Shown here: positions 13,124 to 36,327 of the stretch, piece by piece | How the letters are laid out: the number at the start of each line of letters is the position of its first letter | How positions within the stretch are numbered: position 1 is the stretch's first letter | Origin: Octopus vulgaris | Taxonomy: Eukaryota | Reading direction: 5' to 3' | Length of the DNA: 64,000 nt | Assembly: GCA_951406725.2 (NCBI GenBank) | Contig: OX597818.1 | Coordinates: forward strand, 51,274,001-51,338,000 | Made by a program: the position numbers and the translations under genes | Notes under the pieces: generated by a model | Seen by the model: only the letters and a program-made list of their open reading frames with translations | Database searches by the model: none | What the model was told of the DNA's origin: nothing

Positions 13124-16100
13124 CTAGAAACAGACAGAGAATTTGCAGGAAGTCTCCGTTAGACATCTTACAGGTAACAAAGTATAAAGTGGAGTACACA
13201 AAGCTTTGAGTACATTTTGTAATTTTGAGTCCAATTCAGTGTAGTCAAAAAAATCTTTGCAGAAGAAAACCTTAATTGTTGGAATATCATCCCAAGTTGT
13301 ATTCATGTCTTTGACTAAGTTGTTAATAACAGTAAAAAGTTCGCTTAACATTGTGTCTTTTGAAATGGAATCAGTTGAGAATGTATCAGTTATTAAAACA
13401 GAACCTTTAAAGCCTGAGATTTTACTGCATTCATGAATGCGATATTCTAAATGGAGCCTGCCACATGTAATGGTATGTTCCTGCTTTTTGATATCACTTT
13501 GTTCAGTTAAGACTGCTCTACAATCCCATTCAATATGAGCATTCTTGGGTAAACCAGATAAAACAACAAACTGTATTATTGGACTCAGTTCAGAACTAAA
13601 AGCATCTTCATCCAAGCACAACATTCGCTCCCATTCATCTTTCGCCACTTGAAGGAATGTTTGGTCTCTAATATAACAAATGCACAAAGCAATATTCTGG
13701 AAAGTACATTCTCCATGCATAGCTTTTAGTATTCGGTGTACGTGTCTTAAAGATAGTCTGGCTTCAGTTTTAATACAAAACGGTTCTAGAAGCTTCATCG
13801 TTGCTGGACAGAGCCCTATTTGTCCAGCAACAAAAAGGTCCGTGTTAATTTTCACTGCTTGGCTATACGGTCCTATGTTTGCTGGAGCCCAGTGTGAAAG
13901 GCTTTGCACGTGCATGGAATGCCTATCAGGATGTTGTATTTGAGAGCTACCTGCAACATCCATCTTCAAAAGTACATTTGACGGTAAATCCATTTCGACA
14001 CAAACACGAACCGGAGGGTTAGGTCCAAAATATTTCTTATAAATACTATTAATCACACTATAAGTTTCCATATTTTTTACATATAAATGTACAGAGTAAA
14101 TATTTTTGAAAGTAGGAGAAATTTTACAGAGAGACAGTGATTCTTTTAGAGAACCCATCACTTGCTGGCTTGCTGCTTCTACATCTCTTCCACAGCCAAC
14201 AAGGTTAGCAATCCAAAAATATTCATTGGATTCTTTGATTAAAGGCGGTTTAATTTCCACTGAAGCAAGATTTTCAGCAACACGGTTCTCTTGTGATTTA
14301 TCAAACTGCAAGCTCTCTTGCTCTTCAACAGAAAAGAGTTCATCAATTAGGAATTTACTGGATTTCATTGACAAATCTGCCAGAGACTGATCTATACCAT
14401 CTTTTACTTCGAGATGCAGAGACTTGAAACTTATATAGCCTACTGGGGCAAAAGCATCATCCGAATGGCATACAATTTCACTATCATCAACGAGTATTTT
14501 TTTCTTGAACAATGGGCAATCAAGCGTGAAGGTTTCATACTCTCCGCCTTCACCACAAACATTTAATCCATACTTTTGGTGAAGCTGGATCATACTTGGA
14601 TAAATCTCTTTCAACGAAAGTCTAAGGTGTTTCTCCGGCATCAGTCCCATAGCTGCGACTTTGATAATAATTGCATCTACTTTTGCATCGATCATTTCAG
14701 CAAGGAGTTCTTGTTGGTCTCGCCGCCACAGATAAGCAAGTACGGTCAGTCCAAGTCGACTACAGACGTTTTCGACACGAACACGTTGGTAATCTGAAAG
14801 TATAGCTCCCACCGATACGGCATCTACTTCTTCAACTTCTTCCATTACCAATTTTAAGAGATTGTACAAGTCTTCCACTTCATCTCCTTCGGTCAGGTCA
14901 TAATCTCTGTCTGTTCTCTTGGAGTTTCCTTCTATGGTTCTCCGGAACAATGGTACTTCCATAGCTTTACCATACAAATCAATAGCATGATGACCAACAG
15001 TCTGTAATGAGAAACAGTAGCTATGTTACAAAGAGTTTTGTGTGTGTGTGTGTGTGTGTAATCATCATCATCATCATTTTAAGGACCACTTTTCTATGTC
15101 TGCATGGGTCAGAGAGAGTTTATGGAAATACATTTCTTATAGCTGGATGCCCTCCCTGTTTCCAAGCAAAGTAATATTTTCCCATAACCAACATCTTCTC
15201 ACAGAATATTAGAAATGAATGCCACTGCTTGTATGATTGTCACAATAATTTTACAATTAAGTAACATCTTAAAAACACAAACACAGAGTTTATCATGGAA
15301 TAATAAATGATCAGTGCGTTGAACAAAAATATCTTGTGGTATTTTGTTCCCCCTTAGGTTATGTACTCCTCTCTCCCTTTCGGAGAGGCACTGAGCACCT
15401 ACACACACATGGCAGTAACTTCCGCCTACCGAATTCAATCACAAAGCTCCGGTTGGCTCGGGGCTACAGTAGAAGACACCTGCCCAAAGTGCCACGCAGT
15501 GGGACTGAACCCAAAACCATGTAGCTAGGAAGCAAGCTCCCTAACCACACAGCCATGCCTGTGCCTACTACCATTACGCTCAATTAACTTTGCATTTTGT
15601 CCCTTAGGAAGTCGATAATAAAACTACCAGACCAAGTCCAGCAAGCCAATATAATCAACTAAAATCTTTTAAATGTAGACCCAGCATGGCCATGATCCAA
15701 CGACTGAAACCATTAAAATCATCATCATCATCATCCAGTGCTTTCAATCCAGGTTTTGTCCCCATTAACAGGGGTGTCCAGATCTGCCATGATGCCATAG
15801 CAACCGAGGTAGGCAGGTGCAGCACACCCCAACCTTTGGGCTGGCTGGCTGGCTGGTGCCCATTCTCCTTTGCTATCCTGAGGCTTTTTTGGAGATGGAT
15901 TTTCTATGGGGAGCATGCCCCTGCTTACCCCCAATTTCAGTTTCTAGACATGAGTGGTCCCAAGACCAAGGCCTCTCTACCACAATTTTTAAGAAATGTA
16001 GTGGAAAACTAGCTCAGGAAGGCAGGGATGCTACGACTGGAGCCTAGTGCAGCCTCCTGGCTTCCCAGACCCCGGTCGAGCTGTCCAACCTATGCTAGCA

Positions 16101-17556
16101 TGGAAAACAGACGTTAAACGATGATGATGATGATGAAAAAGGCTGCAAAACAGTTGTAATCCTAAGAATGTCAAGTGATTAAATAAATACATACACCTCT
16201 TATACCTCCTGACTCTTTATAGATATATATATATATATATATATATATATCAAATCAATATCATTTAATGTCCATTTTCCAAGCTGGCATGGGTTGGACA
16301 GTTTGACTGAAAACTGGGGACCTGCACCAGGTTTCAATCTGATTTGGCATAATTTCTATGGCTGGATGCACTTCCTAACATCAACCACTCCAAGAGTGTA
16401 GTAAGCGCCCTTCATATGAATTCCAGAGCCCTCCTACCAGAAAAAAGAAGTTAGAAAAATATTAATTGTATGTAATACTCTTCTGTATTAAAATCAGATG
16501 CTAAACTACTCCTCCCACTCTTTTTCTGACTTCTACACAGGAAGCACAACTACATCAGACAATTAATTAATTACAACTGTACTATTATTTAACACAGTCA
16601 AATTTGACACAATTACATTTAGTCATACTAATTAGGTGAATACACTGCTATCCTCACTAACCCTTCCTTACTGTCTCTTTATTATTATGTCCAGAATTGA
16701 ACTAGATTCAAACCAATAAGAGAGCCTCTATGTGTCTTTTGCCCTGCAAGAAACTGCAGCAGAGAAGTCACCCTCAAACCACACCTAACTATCTTAATCA
16801 AAAAAAAAAAACATTCAATAAAACTGTGTAAGGCATGCTGTATTTCAAATATATATTTATAAATTTGCAGTATAAGATATGAATTCAGAGAATTGTGTGG
16901 TTATCACAGAAAGCTCCTCTAATGGACTTAGCTATCAGACCACAGAAAATTAATACAGAGAGGTGTAATGCAAAGTGTCCTTGCAGCTGAAATGCAGAAA
17001 ATCCAATCAATGAAATTACTTCATGAGAAGTATATAAACCATAAAAAGTCAGGAGGCATGAGAGGTGAATCTATTTATTTAACCACTTGACATCATGAGG
17101 ATTACAGCCGATTTTCCGCTTTCTTAATATAATAATAATTTCAGTGTATAATAAATTAGGTTTTCATGTTAATGTAAACATATAAACATTACTTTATTCC
17201 ACACTGAAATTATCATTATGGCACATAAAAAGCACTATCCGAATATGGCTGATGCCAGCGCCACCTTGACTGGCTTCTGTGCCGGTGGCACGTAAAAAGC
17301 ACCAAACAATCATGGCCGTTTCCAGCCTCCCCTGGTACCTGTGCTGGTGGCACGTAAAACACACTCACGGAGTGGTTGGTGTTAGGAAGGGAATCCAGCT
17401 GTAGAAACTCTGCCAGATCAGACTGGAGCCTGGTGCAGCCATCTGGTTTGCCAGTCCTCAGTCAAATTGTCCAACCCATACTAGCATGGAAAACAGACAT
17501 TAAACATATTAAACATTAAACAGACATTAAATATATATATGTCATGGAAAACAGAC

Positions 17557-17588
<32 letters not shown>

Positions 17589-17789
17589 GGAGTGGCTGTG
17601 TGGTAAGTAGCTTGCCTACCAACCATATGGTTCCGGGTTCAGTCCACGTCACCTAGCGGTTCGGCAAAAGAGACCGATAGAATAAGTACTGGACTTACAA
17701 AGAATAAGTCCCAGGATCGAGTTGCTCGACTAAAGGCGGTGCTCCAGCATGGCCACAGTCAACTGACTGAAACAAGTAAGAGTAAAAGA

Positions 17790-17829
<40 letters not shown>

Positions 17830-19507
17830 AATCAACATCATTTAATGTCCATTTTCCAAGCTGGCATGGGTTGGACAGTTTGACTGAAAACTGGTAAACT
17901 GGGGACCTGCACCAGGTTTCAATCTGATTTGGCATAATTTCTATGGCTGGATGCCCTTCCTAACACCAACCACTCCAAGAGTGTAGTAAGTGCCCTCCAT
18001 ATGAATTCTTGTAGATATGACACAAATAAATTGTCCGACGTTCCAAATTGTCACCATGATTTTCTTTTCACTCGCATCCACATATTCTACATATTTTGCG
18101 TGTCAACGGACCCCGTTTGTGAGATCCACAAAGTTCTCATGGTACACAGTCACTTCGTGGGTGTAATGTCGATATCTTCCCTTTCATTCTTATTTACTTT
18201 TTTAAACACACTAAACTAAAAAAAATTACCTAGTACTCTTTTACTTGTTTCAGTTATTTGACTACGGCCATGCTAGAGCACCGCCTTTAGTCGAGCAAAT
18301 CGACCCTAGGACTTATTCTTTGGACGCCTACTACTTATTCTATCGGTCTCTTTTGCATCGGTTGTCAAGCGATGTTGGGGGACAAACACAGACACACAAA
18401 CATATACATATATACAACAGGCTTCTTTCATTTTCCATCTACCAAATCCACTCACAAGGCTTTGGTTGGCGTGAGGCTATAGTAGAAGAGACTTGCCCAA
18501 GGTGTCGCGCAGTGGGACTGAACCCGGAGCCATGTGGTTGTTAAGTTACGGGGACGTAAACACACCACCATCGGTTGTCAAGCGATGTTGGGGGGACAAA
18601 CACAGATACAAATATTTATACACACGCATACATATATATATATACATATATACGACGAGCTTCCTTCATTTTCCATCTACCAAATCCACTCACAAGGCTT
18701 TGGTCGACCCAAGGCTATAGTATTATCACGTGTATATATATTATTTCACTTGTTTTAGCCACTTGACTGCGGCCATGCTGGAACACCGCCTTAAAGGTTT
18801 TTGTTGAAGAAATCGACCCCAGGACTTATTCTTTGTAAACCTAGTACTTATCCTATTGGTCTCCTTTGCTGAACTGCTAATTTGCGAGGGCGTAAACACA
18901 CCAGCATCGGTAGCCGAGGGATAGACACATGCACATGAATATATACATACATATATATACGACGGGCTTCTTTCAGTTTCCGTCTACCAAATCCACTCAC
19001 AAGGCTTTGGTCGGCTCGAGGCTATAGTAGAAGACACTTACCCAAGGTGCCACGCAGTGGGACTGAACCTGGAAGTATGTGGTTGGGAAACAAGCTTTCT
19101 TACCACACAGCCACCCCTGCGCCTATGACATGTGTATAACATACGTGAACACGTGCACAAGGAAACTGTACGGTCGTCCTGCGAGAAATATGAAACGAAT
19201 AACCTTAAAATCATAGCTTCTTGTTTTAAATAATGAATATCAAAAACAGAAAAAAAAGAGATAAATCGGGATGGTCATGGCTAGAATTCCATTGATTATA
19301 AGAGTTTCCGATCGGAGCTGTCTTAGGTTTAAACAACACCACGTGCACTATAAGAAAGAAGTTTACCTGAAACATATAACTATCCATTTCGTCTACATCA
19401 GGTGGTCTTAAATTCGCCAAGGCGACAATTTCGTGGCCTTCGGCCACACATTGCATCATATTATAGGTACTGTCTTTACCACCGCTGATCAAAGCGACAA
19501 CCTTCAT
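13124..19507 (-). CDS. DPH6: Diphthine-ammonia ligase with C-terminal RidA/YjgF-like domains; exons 19507-19367 and 15001-13124; 672 aa
   Basis: MKVVALISGGKDS PP-loop; DSYMFQ|TVGH joined by a phase-0 GT-AG intron; GAILSDYQRVRVENVC, CGEGGEYETFTLDCPLF and HVQSLSHWAPANIGPYSQA motifs. Confidence 0.95.
18001..18165 (-). pseudogene. Merlin (ISXO2/IS1595-like) transposase fragment in the DPH6 intron
   Basis: Manual translation YTHEVTVYHENFVDLTNGV / TQNM*NMWMRVKRKSW*QFGTSDNLFVSYLQEF (one frameshift, two stops) matches the Merlin motif YxHxxVxHxxNFVDPxTGxHTQxIExxWxxxK...YLxEF. Confidence 0.7.
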
Positions 19508-19678
19508 GTTGGTGATCCGTCTGTTTACACCGGAACCAATAATTGCGATGAAAGTAATTTCCCTTTGGTTGAATGGCTAAAGACAGCGACAAAATGCTGT
19601 GAGATATTTGGTTGCTTCCCTTTACGTTCTGAGTTCGAATCCCATTGGGAACGACTTCGATATATATACTGCTCGATT

Positions 19679-21084: not shown

Positions 21085-21239
21085 ACTTTCTTTAAAATAT
21101 ATCTTTAATGAGACTTTACTGTGATACGTTTTCAAGATTGTTGAGTACAATTGTCTTGAGATATGAAAGAAAAAAACCAAAGATTTTAAAATAAAACAAC
21201 GGGCAAAGGAAATTTACAATAGAGTTTTTATATATTAAA

Positions 21240-21498
21240 AATTGACCAAAATTGAGAGTATGATAGAAGAAGGCGTGTTCTTCATTCCGTAGATGAAAAA
21301 TTCAAATAGGACCATGTTAACACCAAAAATTATTTACATCTAAAAGGTGCCTTTTTTTTCTATGAAAATCCCTATTTTTTACGATTTTTTTACTGCTGTG
21401 TTGCCATTTTTCGGTGTATTTCAATCAGAAAAATGTTCACTTAAAGAAAATAAGCTACATAATGCAAAAATCCGGGCAACAACGGGCAATGCTGCTAG
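21240..21498 (+). mobile_element. Non-autonomous Helitron, 3' part
   Basis: Homologous (reverse complement) to 28129-28426; ends CCGGGCAACAACGGGCAATGCTGCTAG|T. The 5' end was not identified. Confidence 0.7.
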
Positions 21499-21557
21499 TA
21501 CTAAATAAATATATTAAAAAGCTTTAGCTTTAAATGTTTGCAATAAAATTACGATGC

Positions 21558-21629
21558 CTCCCCGGCGGGGAATCGAACCCCGGTCTCCCGCGTGACAGGC
21601 GGGGATACTTACCACTATACTACCGAGGA
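21558..21629 (-). tRNA. tRNA-Asp(GTC)
   Basis: 72-nt TCCTCGGTAGTATAGTGGTAAGTATCCCCGCCTGTCACGCGGGAGACCGGGGTTCGATTCCCCGCCGGGGAG; intact cloverleaf and A/B boxes. Confidence 0.95.
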
Positions 21630-21712
21630 CAGCTGATGAAACCTTTTACTTATAAATATCAAATAAATATATTAAAAAGTTTTAGTTTAAAATCTTTACA
21701 ATAAAATTAAGA

Positions 21713-21731
21713 CGCCGGGCGATGTTGCTAG
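21713..21731 (+). mobile_element. Second Helitron-type 3' terminus
   Basis: CGCCGGGCGATGTTGCTAG|T, matching the terminus at 21480-21498 and at 28129-28146 (-). Confidence 0.55.
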
Positions 21732-21739
21732 TGATAATA

Positions 21740-23188
21740 GGTACTTGTCAATTGTCGTGGTCCCGGTTTTGCACACGCGAATTCGCGCGCGCGCGCGCCA
21801 GACGTAGGTACTCGATACTCGAGATCCTACGAGGTGACTTGCGCATGCGCAGTGCAGAATTCGCGCGTGCGCGTTAACCCCCCCCTAAAAAAAAAGGTGT
21901 TGGATTTCACTAAAAATATATGTGTGTGTGTGTGTGTATATATAACATTTTCAATTTTACACAAAAAAATTACATAGTCGCTTTCCTCGCGGATTTACAG
22001 AGAAATGAATTAATTACTATTTTACAGAATAAAATTAATGAATTAATTATATAAATTAAATAATTCTTGAAAATTAATTAATATTAATAATATTTTTTGA
22101 ACAAAGTAAATAATTTATAAAACTTGGTTAATAATTTTTTTTACACAAACGCGAACGTATATAATTTGTGAAACTTTTTTTTTTTTACAGACGTATATAA
22201 TTTGGTAAACTTAATGAATTAATTTCTTCTCATCATCATCATCGTTTAACGTCCGTTCTCCATGCCAGCATGGGTTGGACGGTTCGACCGGGGATCTGGG
22301 AAGCCAGAAGGCTGCACCAGACTCCAGTCTTATCTGGCAATGTTTCTACAGCTGGATGCCCTTCCTAACGCCAACCACTCCGAGAGTGTAGTGGGTGCTT
22401 TTTACATGCCACGGTCGGATTGGTGCCAGTCGAGGCGGCTCTGGCATCGGCCACGATTCGGATAGTGCTTTTTACGTACCACCAGTCCAGGGGTCCTGGC
22501 ATTTGCCGGGTGCCACACTTGCCCCAACATGTCTTCGCAAGCAAAGGGGGTTGGCATGGGTGCCTGTCGTGGGATGAGGTTCGATATCAACTTCGCTTGC
22601 CTCAACAGGTCTTTGTGTATAAATGTATAAATTTTTCGCACTAAATTCTTTCCGTAGAATTTATAAAAAAACGCGCAAAATTATTCCGTAGACTTTATCA
22701 AATTAAAAAACGCAAAATTAATATATTTTTTGAAATTGCAAATTATTTAGAATATAAAACAAATTAAGTTAAATTTTAAAAATAAATGTCATATACTTAT
22801 ACTCTGTAAGGTGCTGTGTTCACACTTCAATTTACTATTTTCTAGAAATGTTGCTTTTCTAATTGAAACAATTTTTCTCAATCTCCATTTAAAAGTCCAT
22901 AATGCCTCTTGAGCCATATCAAAATGAACAACTTTGAATTACCCGGTGGTGGTGTGAGGTTCTAATTTTTTTTCTGATCTCTCTTTGCCCCCTCTTTATC
23001 TCAGTTGTTCATTCAGCTAATATTTAGAAAAATTTTCGCGCCCAATTTTTGTTGTCGCGGGAAAAGATGAACGATTTAAAATAAATATATCTTAATTGTA
23101 GTGTGAGAAAGTATATATATTCTGATGACAAAATATATTATCTTTCAAAAACATCCCAAATTTATAGACTATATCGTGTAGGTTTAAG

Positions 23189-23223
<35 letters not shown>

Positions 23224-24605
23224 TATAGATATATATATACATATATAGTAGAGAATGAAACATCTTTCATCTGTCTCCCCACCACACCTCCATCTAGGGG
23301 GGGCAAAGAGAGATCAGAAAAAAAATTAGAACCTCACACCACCACCACCACCACCGGGTAATTCAAAGTTGTTCATTTTGATATGGCTCAAGAGGCATTA
23401 TGGACTTTTAAATGGAGATTGAGAAAAATTGTTTCAATTAGAAAAGCAACATTTCTAGAAAATAGTAAATTGAAGTGTGAACACAGCACCTTACAGAGTA
23501 TAAGTATATGACATTTATTTTTAAAATTTAACTTAATTTGTTTTATATTCTAAATAATTTGCAATTTCAAAAAATATATTAATTTTGCGTTTTTTAATTT
23601 GATAAAGTCTACGGAATAATTTTGCGCGTTTTTTTATAAATTCTACGGAAAGAATTTAGTGCGAAAAATTTATACATTTATACACAAAGACCTGTTGAGG
23701 CAAGCGAAGTTGATATCGAACCTCATCCCACGACAGGCACCCATGCCAACCCCCTTTGCTTGCGAAGACATGTTGGGGCAAGTGTGGCACCCGGCAAATG
23801 CCAGGACCCCTGGACTGGTGGTACGTAAAAAGCACTATCCGAATCGTGGCCGATGCCAGAGCCGCCTCGACTGGCACCAATCCGACCGTGGCCGTTGCCA
23901 GCCTCGCCTGGCACCTGTGCGGGTGGCATGTAAAAAGCACCCACTACACTCTCGGAGTGGTTGGCGTTAGGAAGGGCATCCAGCTGTAGAAACATTGCCA
24001 GATAAGACTGGAGTCTGGTGCAGCCTTCTGGCTTCCCAGATCCCCGGTCGAACCGTCCAACCCATGCTGGCATGGAGAACGGACGTTAAACGATGATGAT
24101 GATGAGAAGAAATTAATTCATTAAGTTTACCAAATTATATACGTCTGTAAAAAAAAAAAAGTTTCACAAATTATATACGTTCGCGTTTGTGTAAAAAAAA
24201 ATTATTAACCAAGTTTTATAAATTATTTACTTTGTTCAAAAAATATTATTAATATTAATTAATTTTCAAGAATTATTTAATTTATATAATTAATTCATTA
24301 ATTTTATTCTGTAAAATAGTAATTAATTCATTTCTCTGTAAATCCGCGAGGAAAGCGACTATGTACTTTTTTTGTGTAAAATTGAAAATGTTATATATAC
24401 ACACACACACACACACATATATTTTTAGTGAAATCCAACACCTTTTTTTTTTTTAGGGGGGGGGGGGTTAACGCGCACGCGCGAATTCTGCACTGCGCAT
24501 GCGCAAGTCACCTCGTAGGATCTCGAGTATCGAGTACCTACGTCTGGCGCGCGCGCGCGCGAATTCGCGTGTGCAAAACCGGGACCACGACAATTGACAA
24601 GTACC
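21740..24605. mobile_element. Foldback-type non-autonomous DNA transposon (2866 bp; arms 21740-22992 and 23299-24605; about 305-bp spacer)
   Basis: Near-identical inverted arms starting GGTACTTGTCAATTGTCGTGG; perfect 9-bp TSD GTGATAATA (21731-21739, 24606-24614); no transposase. GG termini and a 9-bp TSD fit Merlin or Mutator. Confidence 0.9.
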
Positions 24606-25079
24606 GTGATAATAATATCAATAGGTCATAATAATGTTATTTCATGCATTTGTTTTGCAAGGTGTGGCTGTGGTGGTTAGGAAATTGCTTCCTAGTCACA
24701 TGGTTTAGTTCCACTGCGTGACAACCCGGGTAAATGCCTTTCAATATAACCCCGGGTTGACTAAAACCTCGTGAGTGGATTTGGTAGATGGAAAATGAAA
24801 GAAATCTGTCACACACACACACATATAGGGTGAAAGGGTTGGTATGTGAAAGCACGTGGTTGGATGTATAAAAAACAAAATAGAAGGAAAAAGCTACAGA
24901 TTTGTATTATATGGTTTAAAAATATATTAAAATCGTCATATTAGGAAAGTAATATAAATGATATAAAACTTTGTGAATAAACAAAATTTCATATCATTTT
25001 CCTAACATGACAATTTTAATATATTTTTTATCATATAATACAAATCTTCTGTAGTTTTTCATTCTGTTTTGTGTGTATA

Positions 25080-26662: not shown

Positions 26663-26900
26663 ATCAAAGATTTAGTCGGCCCGGGGATATAGTAGAGAAC
26701 ACTTGCTCAAGGTGTCACATACTAGGATTGAACCCACGAACCATGTGATTGAAGAAGCAAACTTCTTATCACGTAGTCACGCCTCTACACCTATTCATGG
26801 AGTTTATAAAATAACGACATGAATAAGCAGCAAAAATGAAAGAAAGAGTTTTATATACTATAATTATTTAATATTCGTAAGTAAAAAGTTTCATCAGCTG

Positions 26901-26972
26901 TCCTCGGTAGTATAGTGGTAAGTATCCCCGCCTGTCACGCGGGAGACCGGGGTTCGATTCCCCGCCGGGGAG
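26901..26972 (+). tRNA. tRNA-Asp(GTC), array copy 1
   Basis: Matches the consensus. Confidence 0.95.
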
Positions 26973-27058
26973 GCATCTTAATTTTATTGCAAATATTTTA
27001 AATTAAAGCTTTTTAATATATTTATTTGCTATTTATAAGTAAAAGATTTCATCAGCTG

Positions 27059-27129
27059 TCCTCGGTAGTATAGTGGTAAGTATCCCCGCCTGTCACGCGG
27101 GAGACCGGGTTCGATTCCCCGCCGGGGAG
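27059..27129 (+). tRNA. tRNA-Asp(GTC), array copy 2 (1-nt deletion in T-stem; possibly pseudo)
   Basis: GACCGGGTTCG instead of GACCGGGGTTCG; this could be a homopolymer sequencing error. Confidence 0.75.
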
Positions 27130-27215
27130 GCATCTTAATTTTATTGCAAACATTTTAAACTAAAACTTTTTAATATATTTATTTGGTATTTATAAGTAAA
27201 AGATTTCATCAGCTG

Positions 27216-27287
27216 TCCTCGGTAGTATAGTGGTAAGTATCCCCGCCTGTCACGCGGGAGACCGTGGTTCGATTCCCCGCCGGGGAG
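27216..27287 (+). tRNA. tRNA-Asp(GTC), array copy 3 (T-stem G>T)
   Basis: GACCGTGGTTCG. Confidence 0.8.
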
Positions 27288-27373
27288 GCATCTTAATTTT
27301 ATTGCAAACATTTTAAACTAAAACTTTTTAAAATATTTATTTTGTATTTATAAGTAAAAGATTTCATCAGCTG

Positions 27374-27445
27374 TCCTCGGTAGTATAGTGGTAAGTATCC
27401 CCGCCTGTCACGCGGGAGACCGGGGTTCGATTCCCCGCCGGGGAG
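27374..27445 (+). tRNA. tRNA-Asp(GTC), array copy 4
   Basis: Matches the consensus. Confidence 0.95.
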
Positions 27446-27531
27446 GCATCTTAATTTTATTGCAAACATTTTAAACTAAAACTTTTTAATATATTTATTT
27501 GGTATTTATAAGTAAAAGATTTCATCAGCTG

Positions 27532-27603
27532 TCCTCGGTAGTATAGTGGTAAGTATCCCCGCCTGTCACGCGGGAGACCGGGGTTCGATTCCCCGCCGGG
27601 GAG
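27532..27603 (+). tRNA. tRNA-Asp(GTC), array copy 5
   Basis: Matches the consensus. Confidence 0.95.
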
Positions 27604-27689
27604 GCATCTTAATTTTATTGCAAACATTTTAAACTAAAACTTTTTAATATATTTATTTGGTATTTATAAGTAAAAGATTTCATCAGCTG

Positions 27690-27761
27690 TCCTCGGTAGT
27701 ATAGTGGTAAGTATCCCCGCCTGTCACGCGGGAGACCGGGGTTCGATTCCCCGCCGGGGAG
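27690..27761 (+). tRNA. tRNA-Asp(GTC), array copy 6
   Basis: Matches the consensus. Confidence 0.95.
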
Positions 27762-27847
27762 GCATCTTAATTTTATTGCAAACATTTTAAACTAAAACTT
27801 TTTAATATATTTATTTGGTATTTATAAGTAAAAGATTTCATCAGCTG

Positions 27848-27919
27848 TCCTCGGTAGTATAGTGGTAAGTATCCCCGCCTGTCACGCGGGAGACCGGGGT
27901 TCGATTCCCCGCCGGGGAG
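27848..27919 (+). tRNA. tRNA-Asp(GTC), array copy 7
   Basis: Matches the consensus. Confidence 0.95.
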
Positions 27920-28005
27920 GCATCATAATTTTATTCCAAATATTTTAAACAAAAGCTTTTTAATATATTTATTTGATATTTATAAGTAAATGTTTTCATC
28001 AGCTG

Positions 28006-28077
28006 TCCTCGGTAGTATAGTGGTAAGTATCCCCGCCTGTCACGCGGGAGATGGGGGTTCGATTCCCCGCCGGGGAG
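28006..28077 (+). tRNA. tRNA-Asp(GTC), array copy 8 (CC>TG at variable loop/T-stem; possibly pseudo)
   Basis: GAGATGGGGGTTCG instead of GAGACCGGGGTTCG. Confidence 0.7.
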
Positions 28078-28128
28078 GCAACTTAATTCTATTGCAAATA
28101 TCTTAAACTAATTTTTTTTTACTTAGTA

Positions 28129-28517
28129 CTAGCAGCATAGCCCGGCCTTGCTCGGGTTTGTTTCGACCCTTTAGAATTGGGATTTTTGAAAAATAAAAAT
28201 TTTGCATTATGTAGCTTGTTATTCTCTTTAAGTGAACATTTTTCTGGTTGAAATACACCGAAAAATGGTGACACAGCAGTCAAAAAATCGTTAAAAAAGG
28301 GATTTTCATAGAAAAAAGCACCTTTTTGATGTGAATAACATTTGGTGTTAACATGGTCCGATTTGAATTTTTCTTCTATGGAAGGAAGAGCAAGCCTTCT
28401 TCTATCATACTCTCAATTTTGGTCAACTTGCACTGCAGGGTCTCGGAGGAGATAATGTTAGTTGAAGGCTACCAAACCTGCCATACACAGACAACTTCAG
28501 GTTTATATATAGAGAGA
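28129..28517 (-). mobile_element. Complete non-autonomous Helitron (389 bp)
   Basis: Minus strand reads A|TCTCTCTATATATAAA...CCCGAGCAAGGCCGGG (imperfect hairpin) CTATGCTGCTAG|T: 5'-TC, 3'-CTAG, subterminal hairpin, A|T target, no TSD. Confidence 0.8.
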
Positions 28518-29403: not shown

Positions 29404-30234
29404 TCAAATAAAATGTCACTTTTTTTCAGTGACTTTTTTCCTAATTAAAATTGTCCTTTTTTTTTTTTGTAATTTTCTTTCTGGGCTTTTTTAGTTATGG
29501 CTATTCGCTTCATTGAAGTCAATTTGCCTTTCATCCTTCTAGGGTCGATAAAATAATGTACCAGTCATGACATGAATCAATTCCTATAAAGCATCGTAGT
29601 TTTTGAATGGCATTTTTGCAGTCAGTAGCAGGAGAACCAGCAAAACGCTTAGGTTATTTAAATCGGTAGACCAGCATACGTACACAAGAGCATCCACCGA
29701 CTTTGTTTTCTCATAACTTTCAGAAAAATAGATACTATAATGAAATTTTCTACACATAACTTTCAAATAGAGAAAATTACAATTATATCGGAGTTTGTTA
29801 TGCATATGTTTTTCGGAGGAGAGAGGAGTTTCGAAAAATTCACACGGGATGACTTTGTTTCCTCATAACTTAGAAAATGGATTTTTTTTAAATGAAATTT
29901 TCTTTAAATACCTTTTAGATTGTGTAGCTTACGATTATAGTATAATTTAATGGGAAGAACAAAAAGAAAGGAAGAATGGTGGGCGCATAGACATAAATAC
30001 TAACAAATCACATTCTTTTCAAAATTTCAAGTTTCGTCTTGTAGATATGAATGTAAAACTTTTTACTCTTTTACTTGCTTCAGTCATTTGACTGTGACCA
30101 TGCTGGAGCACTGCCTTTAGTCGGGCAAATCGACCCCCAGGACATATTCTTTGTAAGCCTAGTACTTATTCTATCGGTTTCTTTTGCCGTAATATATTTA
30201 TTTGATATTTGTAAGTAAAAGGTTTCATCAGCTG

Positions 30235-30306
30235 TCCTCGGTAGTATAGTGGTAAGTATCCCCGCCTGTCACGCGGGAGACCGGGGTTCGATTCCCCGCC
30301 GGGGAG
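30235..30306 (+). tRNA. tRNA-Asp(GTC) inside SINE A
   Basis: Consensus sequence with the array-type flanks. Confidence 0.9.
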
Positions 30307-30393
30307 GCATCTTATTTTTATTGCAAATATTTTAAATTAAAACTTTTTAATATATTTATTTGATATTTTATAAGTAAAAGGTTTCATCAGCTG

Positions 30394-30466
30394 TCCTCGG
30401 TAGTATAGTGGTAAGTATCCACCGCCTGTCACGCGGGAGACCGGGGATCGATTCCCCGCCGGGGAG
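30394..30466 (+). pseudogene. tRNA-Asp(GTC) probable pseudogene
   Basis: Inserted A (TATCCACCGCC) and B-box change GGTTCG>GGATCG. Confidence 0.75.
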
Positions 30467-31032
30467 GCATCTTATTTGCCGAATTTTTACGGGGACGTAA
30501 ACACACCAGCATCGGTTGTCAAGCGATATTGGGCGACAAACACAGACACACACACACATATATATACAGTATATATAGACATATATACGATGGGCTTCTT
30601 TCAGTTTCCGTCTACCAAATCCACTCACGAGGCTTTGGTCGGCCCGAGGCTATAGTAGAAGACACTTGCCCAAGGTGCCACGCAGTGGGACTGAACCCGG
30701 AACCATGTGTATGTGTATGTGTATGTATGTGTGCACGCTCACCAATGTGTATGTATGTGTGCACGCTCACCATGTGTATGTATGTGTGCACGCTCACCAA
30801 TATTTTTCACATTAGATTCTGATATAATCGTGATCTACACCACTCGAAAAGTATTTGCAGAAAATTTCGTCAAAAAATATCCGTTTTTTTAGACATTTAT
30901 GAGGAAAAAATTCAGCGGGGGCGGCACAATGACTAGGTACAACCAGGTACATTGAGCAGTAGCCTTAAGATCTCCTATGTCTAGGGGGCCAAATTTTGCT
31001 CTACGTAAGTTTTAACTAGCTCTCAATAAATA

Positions 31033-35130: not shown

Positions 35131-36327
35131 ATGGTAGACTCTATGATTACACAAGAAATGAAGAGGCATGCAGTCATCATGGCTATAAAGGCTGAACATA
35201 ACGATTTAGAGATAGCACGATTTTTAAAAGTTGCTAGATCTTTCGTCTACAAAATTTGCAAGGAGTTAGAGGCTAAAGACAGAAATGTATCACCAGTATC
35301 AAAATGTAAGAAACATTGTAGATGCACTGATACTATTAGAACACCAGAATTTATTCTACAAGTAAAGCAGACCATTAATGATAATCCCATGAGATCCATG
35401 AGGTTGGTTGCAAAAGAACACCATGTGTCAAAAGGAAGAATCCGAAATGTTGTCCACAAAGACATCAGGTACAAATCTTATGCGATGAGAAAAGGTCATT
35501 TCATGCCAGAAGCATTGAAAGAAAATTGCTTAATGAGATCTGAAAGACTCCTGAACAAACTTAAAAACCCAGCAGAGAAAGATGTCATTTGGTTCTTCTC
35601 AGATGAGAAAAACTTTGATCAAGATCAGAAAGTAAACAGAAGAAATGACAGATGGTTATGTACAGACCCTTCAGAAGCTTTAAGAGTAATGCATACAAAA
35701 TTTCCTGCAACTGTCATAGTTTGGGGGGGCTGTCAGCAATGAAGGACATGTGATGTCGCCTCACTTCTTTCCACAATGTCTTTGAGTAAACGCTGTGGCC
35801 TACATAGATGTTCTGAACACAGTGATTAAGCCATGGATCAATAATAAATGCAACGGAAGACCTGTGTTTCAACAAGACTTGGCACCATCATACAAGGCTA
35901 CAGCAATGCAGAAATGGATGGTGGAAAATTTTCGTGACCACATAACCTCCAACATTTGGCCTCCTAGCTCCCCAGATCTCAATCTACTGGACTACTATGT
36001 ATGAAGCATAGTTGAGAAAGAGGTTAATGAGACCCCTCATAACACCAAAGAATCCCTAAAAGCTTCCAGGAGTCAGAGTAATGTCTAATATGAACACAGA
36101 CCACTTGATCCTAACATGCAGGCAATTCAGACCTCACGTCTGCTTTCCATGCTAGCATGGGTTGGACGATTTGACTGAGGACTGGCGAACCAGATGGCTT
36201 CACCAGGCTCCAATTTGATCTGGCAGTATTTCTACAGCTGGATCCCTTCCTAATGCCAACCACTCTGAGAGTGTAGTGGGTGCTTTTACATGCCATTATT
36301 GAAGCTGAAGGAGATTTTATTGAATAA
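35131..36327 (+). pseudogene. Tc1/mariner superfamily transposase, DD37D (maT) type, disrupted
   Basis: WFFSDEKNF, FQQDLAPSY and WPPSSPDLNLLDY with 37 residues between the second and third D; frameshifts and stops; an RTE tail is inserted at about 36137-36294; ends IEAEGDFIE*. Confidence 0.85.

Follow-up and report, generated by a model that had tools for sequence, protein, structure and literature searches.

A solo tRNA-Asp gene between two Helitron-type termini, most likely a local DNA repair product copied from a neighboring tRNA array

RESULTS

tRNA-Asp genes and Helitron-like sequences at the locus

Eleven tRNA-Asp(GTC) genes lie in the window, by which we mean the whole 64-kb stretch of DNA that was analyzed: a solo gene on the minus strand (21558-21629), eight genes in a tandem array (26901-28077), and two more in a short fragment (30235-30466). 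The solo gene sits in a cassette (21240-21731) closed on both sides by Helitron-type termini, and the array abuts a full-length Helitron-like element. The features of the locus are the following.

21179-21241, strand unassigned: patchwork left junction of four 9- to 12-nt pieces that match the cassette, one of them inverted, at the position expected for a Helitron 5' end
21239-21498, plus: 5'-truncated Helitron-like body with a decayed hairpin and a 3' CTAG, from alignment to 28129-28517 (minus)
21499-21557, minus: first 59 nt of an array spacer, the 3' flank of the tRNA gene with its T4 run, from comparison with the central array spacer
21558-21629, minus: intact tRNA-Asp(GTC) gene, from ARAGORN and Rfam RF00005
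21630-21715, minus: complete 86-nt array spacer, the 5' flank of the gene, from comparison with the central array spacer
21713-21731, plus: second Helitron-type terminus, consisting of loop end, right arm, and CTAG, without the left arm
21731-21739, plus: left copy (GTGATAATA) of a 9-bp target duplication, its first base being the G of CTAG
21740-24605, strand unassigned: young foldback (long inverted repeat) element with arms at 21740-22995 and 23296-24605
24606-24614, plus: right copy of the 9-bp target duplication
26856-28128, plus: tandem array of eight tRNA-Asp genes with a 158-bp unit, the apparent donor (tandem repeat at 26859-28111, 7.9 units)
28129-28517, minus: full-length 389-bp nonautonomous Helitron-like element at the array end, in an A|T site
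30190-30477, plus: array fragment with two genes and no Helitron sequence, lying within a dispersed repeat and bordered by a duplicated TTTGCCG and by a small scar of the deletion/filler type

Elsewhere in the window, a minus-strand gene at 13124-19576 encodes Pfam Diphthami_syn_2 and Ribonuc_L-PSP domains and is diphthine-ammonia ligase-like; it consists mostly of one 1.9-kb open frame, and its likely start (19507) is 1.7 kb from the cassette. A 203-aa frame at 35131-35742 (plus), for which no Pfam match was found at 0.001, is taken by us to resemble a decayed Tc1/mariner-type transposase fragment.

The array and the element at its end

The central units of the array are homogenized (four of seven spacers are identical) and the end units diverged; three of the eight genes, at 27059, 27216, and 28006, are altered in or beside the variable loop and T stem. 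A first-pass annotation of this DNA had suggested that a Helitron perhaps amplified the array, a proposal that its structure does not bear out. No Helitron sequence was found in any array unit, and the left end of the array covers the spacer from about position 44 and its right end the spacer up to about position 62, which places both ends in one stretch of ~18 nt. The array as Helitron cargo was rejected on the strength of its Helitron-free units and of these neighboring ends, the latter being modest evidence (about 1 in 9 by chance). A native tandem duplication, arising between AT-rich flanks of similar sequence, would be expected to leave such ends.

Read on the minus strand, the element at 28129-28517 has the form A|TCTCTCTATATATAAA...CTAG|T, with both ends present: the 5' TC at 28517 and the 3' CTAG at 28129. 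It was inserted at A|T without a target duplication, and the flanks, when rejoined as TTAGTA|TTTGGC, continue the spacer by three bases. TC, hairpin, and CTAG ends at an A|T site without target duplication are the defining marks of nonautonomous Helitrons (PMC6544945). The subterminal GC hairpin of the element has an imperfect predicted stem (z = 0.20 against its shuffles), and none of the three termini in the window folds better than its shuffles (z, 0.20 to 0.31). The window contains two bodies of this family, and no Rep/Hel protein was detected among the 7 of its 52 open reading frames that were scanned against Pfam. Helitrons make up 1.02% of an O. vulgaris assembly, in 84 families of which 8 were recently active (PMC13282606), so that two family copies close together would be unremarkable if the window comes from such a genome.

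Matches to the terminus type, and not to the body, were obtained from public contigs. A 22-nt body motif had no matches in metagenome and viral contigs, and a degenerate terminus motif had none in viral contigs. A looser motif reaching from the loop to CTAG|T was found at 109 loci, from 46 of the 64 parts of the metagenome collection; many GC-rich loci among these are probably chance matches, one of the 109 has a tRNA, and none shares the body of 28129-28517. The left arm CCCGR, which was outside the search pattern, is present at 48 of the 109 loci, and 20 loci in one assembly (contig prefix JAAUXU) have common upstream sequence and 20 different 3' flanks. Since the left arm had not been requested and shared upstream sequence is joined to differing 3' flanks, we consider this terminus to be a widespread end type of dispersed repeats, whose intact hairpin, to judge from these contigs, would have the form CCCGRGC-AAC-GCCGGG. 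For the 20 JAAUXU copies, a search over 700 bp revealed no 5' end, and the Helitron status of that family, likely a eukaryotic one, thus depends on the 3' structure and the 20 different 3' flanks. The Helitron-like identity originally assigned to these termini is supported.

Anatomy of the solo cassette

ARAGORN, Rfam, and alignment confirmed the order of parts first described for the cassette, namely a Helitron body, CTAG at 21498, spacer, a perfect tRNA-Asp on the minus strand, a full spacer, and a terminus at 21731. The body covers positions 89 to 389 of the full element (28129-28517, minus), with 23 mismatches among 256 aligned sites; missing are the element's first 88 nt and 42 nt ahead of the hairpin. 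The first CTAG (21495-21498) is followed by TACTAA. Compared with the central array spacer, the spacer piece at 21499-21557 has 5 differences in 59 positions and the complete spacer at 21630-21715 has 5 in 86. The full-length gene between them, called by ARAGORN and scoring 60.4 bits against RF00005, has a T4 run 10 to 13 nt downstream and the commonest tRNA-Asp sequence of the window, common to 7 of the 11 genes. Its conservation over its spacers (0 of 72 against 10 of 145 positions differing; Fisher P = 0.033) suggests selection or gene conversion, and the gene may be expressed.

The junction GCTGCTAG|TACTAA is found at both 21498 and 28129, at the same base and in the same orientation to the gene, the two loci themselves being in opposite orientation. 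Because each array unit offers 15 AT sites, an identical junction at one of them, together with the common TACTAA, gives good support to one origin for both the solo copy and the end of the array, in line with the first-pass annotation. Two other ways of arriving at such a pair, which we jointly consider very improbable, are an assembly artefact and targeting, in which members of one Helitron family would have inserted independently into tRNA spacers. Long inverted repeats that are nearly perfect can arise as assembly artefacts, but the 9% divergence of the two bodies excludes a collapsed or duplicated read, and the adjoining foldback is flanked by a clean 9-bp duplication, with indels separating its arms. 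Targeting would agree with the AT-rich spacers, AT-rich DNA being the preferred Helitron target context (PMC4778049), but it leaves both junctions sharing the same base, the same orientation, and a variant.

At the second junction, the sequence reads spacer-AAGA|CGCCGGGC...CTAG|T. The terminus (21713-21731) shares 16 of its 19 positions with the array-end terminus and starts inside the hairpin loop, with the right arm kept and the left arm absent. It had been described as a terminus joined at a microhomology, and spacer AAGATGCC and terminus AACGCC do overlap in A-(T/C)-GCC, which is short enough for chance alone; what is joined there, however, is half a hairpin and not a whole terminus. The outer end of the cassette is CTAG|T at 21731, in keeping with CTRR|T. 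A terminus pattern has three matches in the window (21498, 21731, and 28129) against 0.03 expected, and 0 of 100 shuffles reach three, but the pattern was drawn from these same termini and the test shows merely that three copies exceed chance. At one diagnostic site the three termini all differ (T, A, and G).

A single cassette was found within the 64-kb window. Of 24 public sequencing runs listed, 21 hold part of 21085-21760, with a best share of 0.51; shares under 0.2 are uninformative, 87 of the 646 31-mers of this probe recur elsewhere in the window, and the pattern fits a diverged single locus or dispersed parts alike.

A foldback element inserted into the second terminus

The DNA outside the second terminus is occupied by a foldback element of 2.87 kb, with a 300-bp center and arms of 1.26 to 1.31 kb that differ by 3 mismatches in 1,256 sites and 5 indels. 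No foldback ends other than these two were found within the window. One and the same copy of a dispersed repeat of a common type is present in both arms (22219-22491 and 23817-24116), and the arms were therefore duplicated or homogenized after that repeat had inserted; GC-rich palindromic motifs lie near the foldback ends. Target duplications of 9 bp are associated with Mutator, and the foldback is Mutator-like by its duplication. As the duplication begins with the G of CTAG, the foldback inserted after the second terminus existed. Removal of the foldback and one copy of the duplication restores CTAG|TGATAATAATATC, an AT-rich and ordinary Helitron 3' junction, and such a clean CTAG|T in AT-rich DNA makes it likely that some element integrated here.

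The left junction lacks a Helitron 5' end

The first-pass annotation had proposed the cassette as a candidate for mobility. A|TC is absent from 21140-21245, ~105 bp around the left edge of the solo body, and the best 5'-end match near this edge is 11/16, which is the background level; for this reason a candidate decayed 5' end at 21225 was rejected. The left arm of the hairpin is likewise absent before the outer end. Deletion of the 5' end abolished transposition of Helraiser, for which this end is essential (PMC4778049), and the solo copy, having no 5' TC end, is predicted to be immobile. Mobility of the cassette is thus not supported by its structure.

In place of the 5' end there is a patchwork. 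Cassette-shared 12-mers cover 36 of 158 bases of the left flank, compared with a shuffle mean of 0.8, and such coverage was reached by 1 of 2,000 shuffles and by 0 of 56 AT-rich tiles, in a test designed after the matches had been noticed and with one piece overlapping the start of the body. Patchwork of this kind is a described mark of templated end joining (PMC12426944). Elsewhere in the window, three of the four pieces occur only inside the cassette and not in the array, which makes the patchwork as old as, or younger than, the private variants of the cassette. Since these three pieces match the solo copy only, the filler may postdate the capture and would then hold little information on how the capture arose. 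The patchwork accounts for the lost 5' end; alone it gives no capture date. Homology between the left flanks of the solo copy and of the array was also considered and rejected, the matches being just 8 to 10 nt long and AT rich.

A Helitron-free copy of the array

The two-gene fragment (30190-30477) is located 1,673 bp past the array-end element. Two of its variants are common to the left end of the array and one to the solo copy, and the central units are without these. The fragment ends at a T run after the second gene, which has one insertion and one substitution. A retrocopy, with which the T-run end would agree, is disfavored by the mid-spacer start and by the position of the fragment 2 kb from its source. 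Free of Helitron sequence and flanked by repair-type scars, the fragment indicates that the array was copied locally without a transposase. Each end of the array has thus given rise to a copy no more than 7 kb away, one including Helitron DNA and the other free of it.

DISCUSSION

Proposed capture by break repair and its alternatives

In all likelihood the solo cassette is a single product of DNA repair that arose locally and can no longer move. That it arose locally, by whatever route, we consider probable and hold with fair confidence; that break repair copied the array-end Helitron together with one tRNA unit into a resident Helitron, in what is known as filler-DNA capture, we propose with moderate confidence. 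The starting point would be the 389-bp element that occupies an A|T site where the tRNA array ends, together with a second copy of the family residing 6.4 kb away, inverted, and ending in CTAG|T at 21731. Following a break in or near the hairpin of the resident copy, its left end would have annealed to the array-end copy, and synthesis would have continued past the array-end CTAG and through ~215 nt of the array until the strand was joined again, at A-(T/C)-GCC, to what was left of the resident terminus; the junctions that such a course would leave are those observed. Short templated filler may have taken the place of the now lost 5' end, in the same event or subsequently. The foldback then inserted at the last base of CTAG, in the order given by its target duplication.

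Break repair is the simplest account of all of the junctions. It explains why only half a hairpin is present, why the outer CTAG|T is clean, and why donor and copy lie so close together (6,398 bp). Homology to the donor is of the filler type, with ~260 nt of shared element at the left junction and A-(T/C)-GCC at the right. Filler-DNA capture inside Helitrons, with junctions of 2 to 13 bp, is an established process (PMC6544945), as is end-bypass or composite capture (PMC4778049 and PMC4224331). The first-pass annotation had pointed to end bypass as the route of capture, which is not supported, since the new end is a 19-nt piece of a terminus of the same type joined in the hairpin loop. Against break repair, the body shows no visible boundary of a conversion tract and its 23 mismatches are spread along its length. 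When the junction-side spacer of the solo copy is aligned with the array-end unit, with many indels, 14 of 50 sites differ; as this exceeds the divergence of the body (9%), either the array served as donor in an earlier state or the solo copy underwent conversion afterwards.

Capture made by a transposase is, in our judgment, unlikely. The array-end Helitron would have read through its weak hairpin, taken one tRNA unit, and inserted whole, with a new end obtained by recombination with another terminus of the family or with its own circle and with the 5' end lost afterwards; such a cassette may have moved once or founded a family. Read-through and new 3' ends have been shown for Helraiser and bat copies (PMC4778049 and PMC4224331), and the imperfect donor hairpin, the clean outer CTAG|T, and the correct placement of the cargo 3' of the first CTAG are all as expected from it; the 5' loss may be secondary. 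A half-hairpin end joined by microhomology nevertheless requires a recombination step anyway, the 5' TC is absent, a Helitron-free spin-off of the array lies nearby, and there is only one cassette in 64 kb. Moreover, a position 6.4 kb from the donor would be expected at ~7e-6 per random event if the genome has the 2.8 Gb given for O. vulgaris (PMC13282606). Transposition explains the proximity poorly because 701 re-insertions of Helraiser, a reconstructed bat Helitron, showed no clustering at donors (PMC4778049), an argument weakened by the report that maize Helitrons insert near other Helitrons (PMC12477314), which also favors the transposase. On the whole, the local evidence leans against a mobile, dispersing cassette, and it is quite improbable that a Helitron subfamily bearing a complete, working tRNA-Asp gene has spread through the genome and seeded tRNA genes or new arrays at unlinked sites, with the solo copy as one of its damaged members.

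A local inverted duplication by template switching, without any resident target element, is a further possibility that we regard as doubtful. The second end would in this case have been copied once more, over a short length, from the donor terminus, or it would be what remains of a later Helitron insertion after a deletion at a microhomology. This course agrees equally well with the proximity, the inversion, the microhomology, and the patchwork, the divergence of the body is roughly even, and with T, A, and G at the diagnostic site of the three termini the source of the second end cannot be assigned. Without prior integration, however, a switch that ends exactly at CTAG|T would be a coincidence, and the version with a deletion needs an extra insertion event. 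Break repair into a resident Helitron remains our preferred reading.

Comparison with known captures

The insect Hel1 elements Sfru_Hel1Aa to Sfru_Hel1Ac, which have a hairpin, are short and noncoding with TC and CTRR at A|T, as is the array-end element, and like the solo copy they contain host DNA from an identifiable donor with short junction homology (PMC6544945). In the insects, capture was followed by amplification into subfamilies; at the present locus a single copy is known, and its cargo is a whole Pol III gene. The solo copy also departs from the insect elements in having lost its 5' end and in its left junction, where the homology is long and runs from element to element. In Helraiser (PMC4778049) and HelibatN539 (PMC4224331), as in the solo copy, the cargo follows the first CTAG on its 3' side and is closed off by another end of Helitron type, but the second end described here is a 19-nt stub cut in the loop rather than a whole downstream element or a chance CTAG, the 5' end is missing, and the donor is adjacent. 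The patchwork of the left junction is like the inserts of polymerase-theta-mediated end joining, which combine short pieces of nearby DNA in both orientations; theta inserts are generally under 25 bp (PMC12426944), and the 215-nt tRNA tract fits homology-primed synthesis better.

For tRNA cargo, the closest report is a tRNA-Cys cluster on Arabidopsis chromosome 5 that overlaps annotated Helitrons (PMC10701932). There, the annotation extends over whole units, none of three prediction tools detected a Helitron, and a Helitron role is described as speculative; unlike in that cluster, the junctions of the solo copy are base precise and the array units are without Helitron sequence. The same paper, from 2023, states that no capture of noncoding RNA by a Helitron had been reported, and a term search of a 2026 review of plant gene capture returned no mention of tRNA (PMC13317346). 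In the open literature, searched by title or abstract start with subscription papers outside the scope, no demonstrated tRNA capture by a Helitron was found. Two other kinds of mobile element, each of a different transposon class, are reportedly tied to Pol III genes: Dada transposons are said to target small RNA genes by inserting into them, and Cassandra is said to be a dispersed retroelement carrying 5S sequence. Neither gene insertion nor retroelement dispersal was seen here.

Significance

On this reading, the solo locus offers a snapshot, at a single site, of the acquisition of a whole gene by a Helitron, with donor, acceptor, and both junctions within 7 kb, and the Helitron-free spin-off nearby serves as a control for this reading. 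It bears on the question of filler DNA versus end bypass in Helitron gene capture, and on how tRNA arrays seed nearby solo genes. If dispersed copies exist, the cassette would be a base-precise case of a rolling-circle transposon that disperses an intact Pol III gene, and it would matter more.
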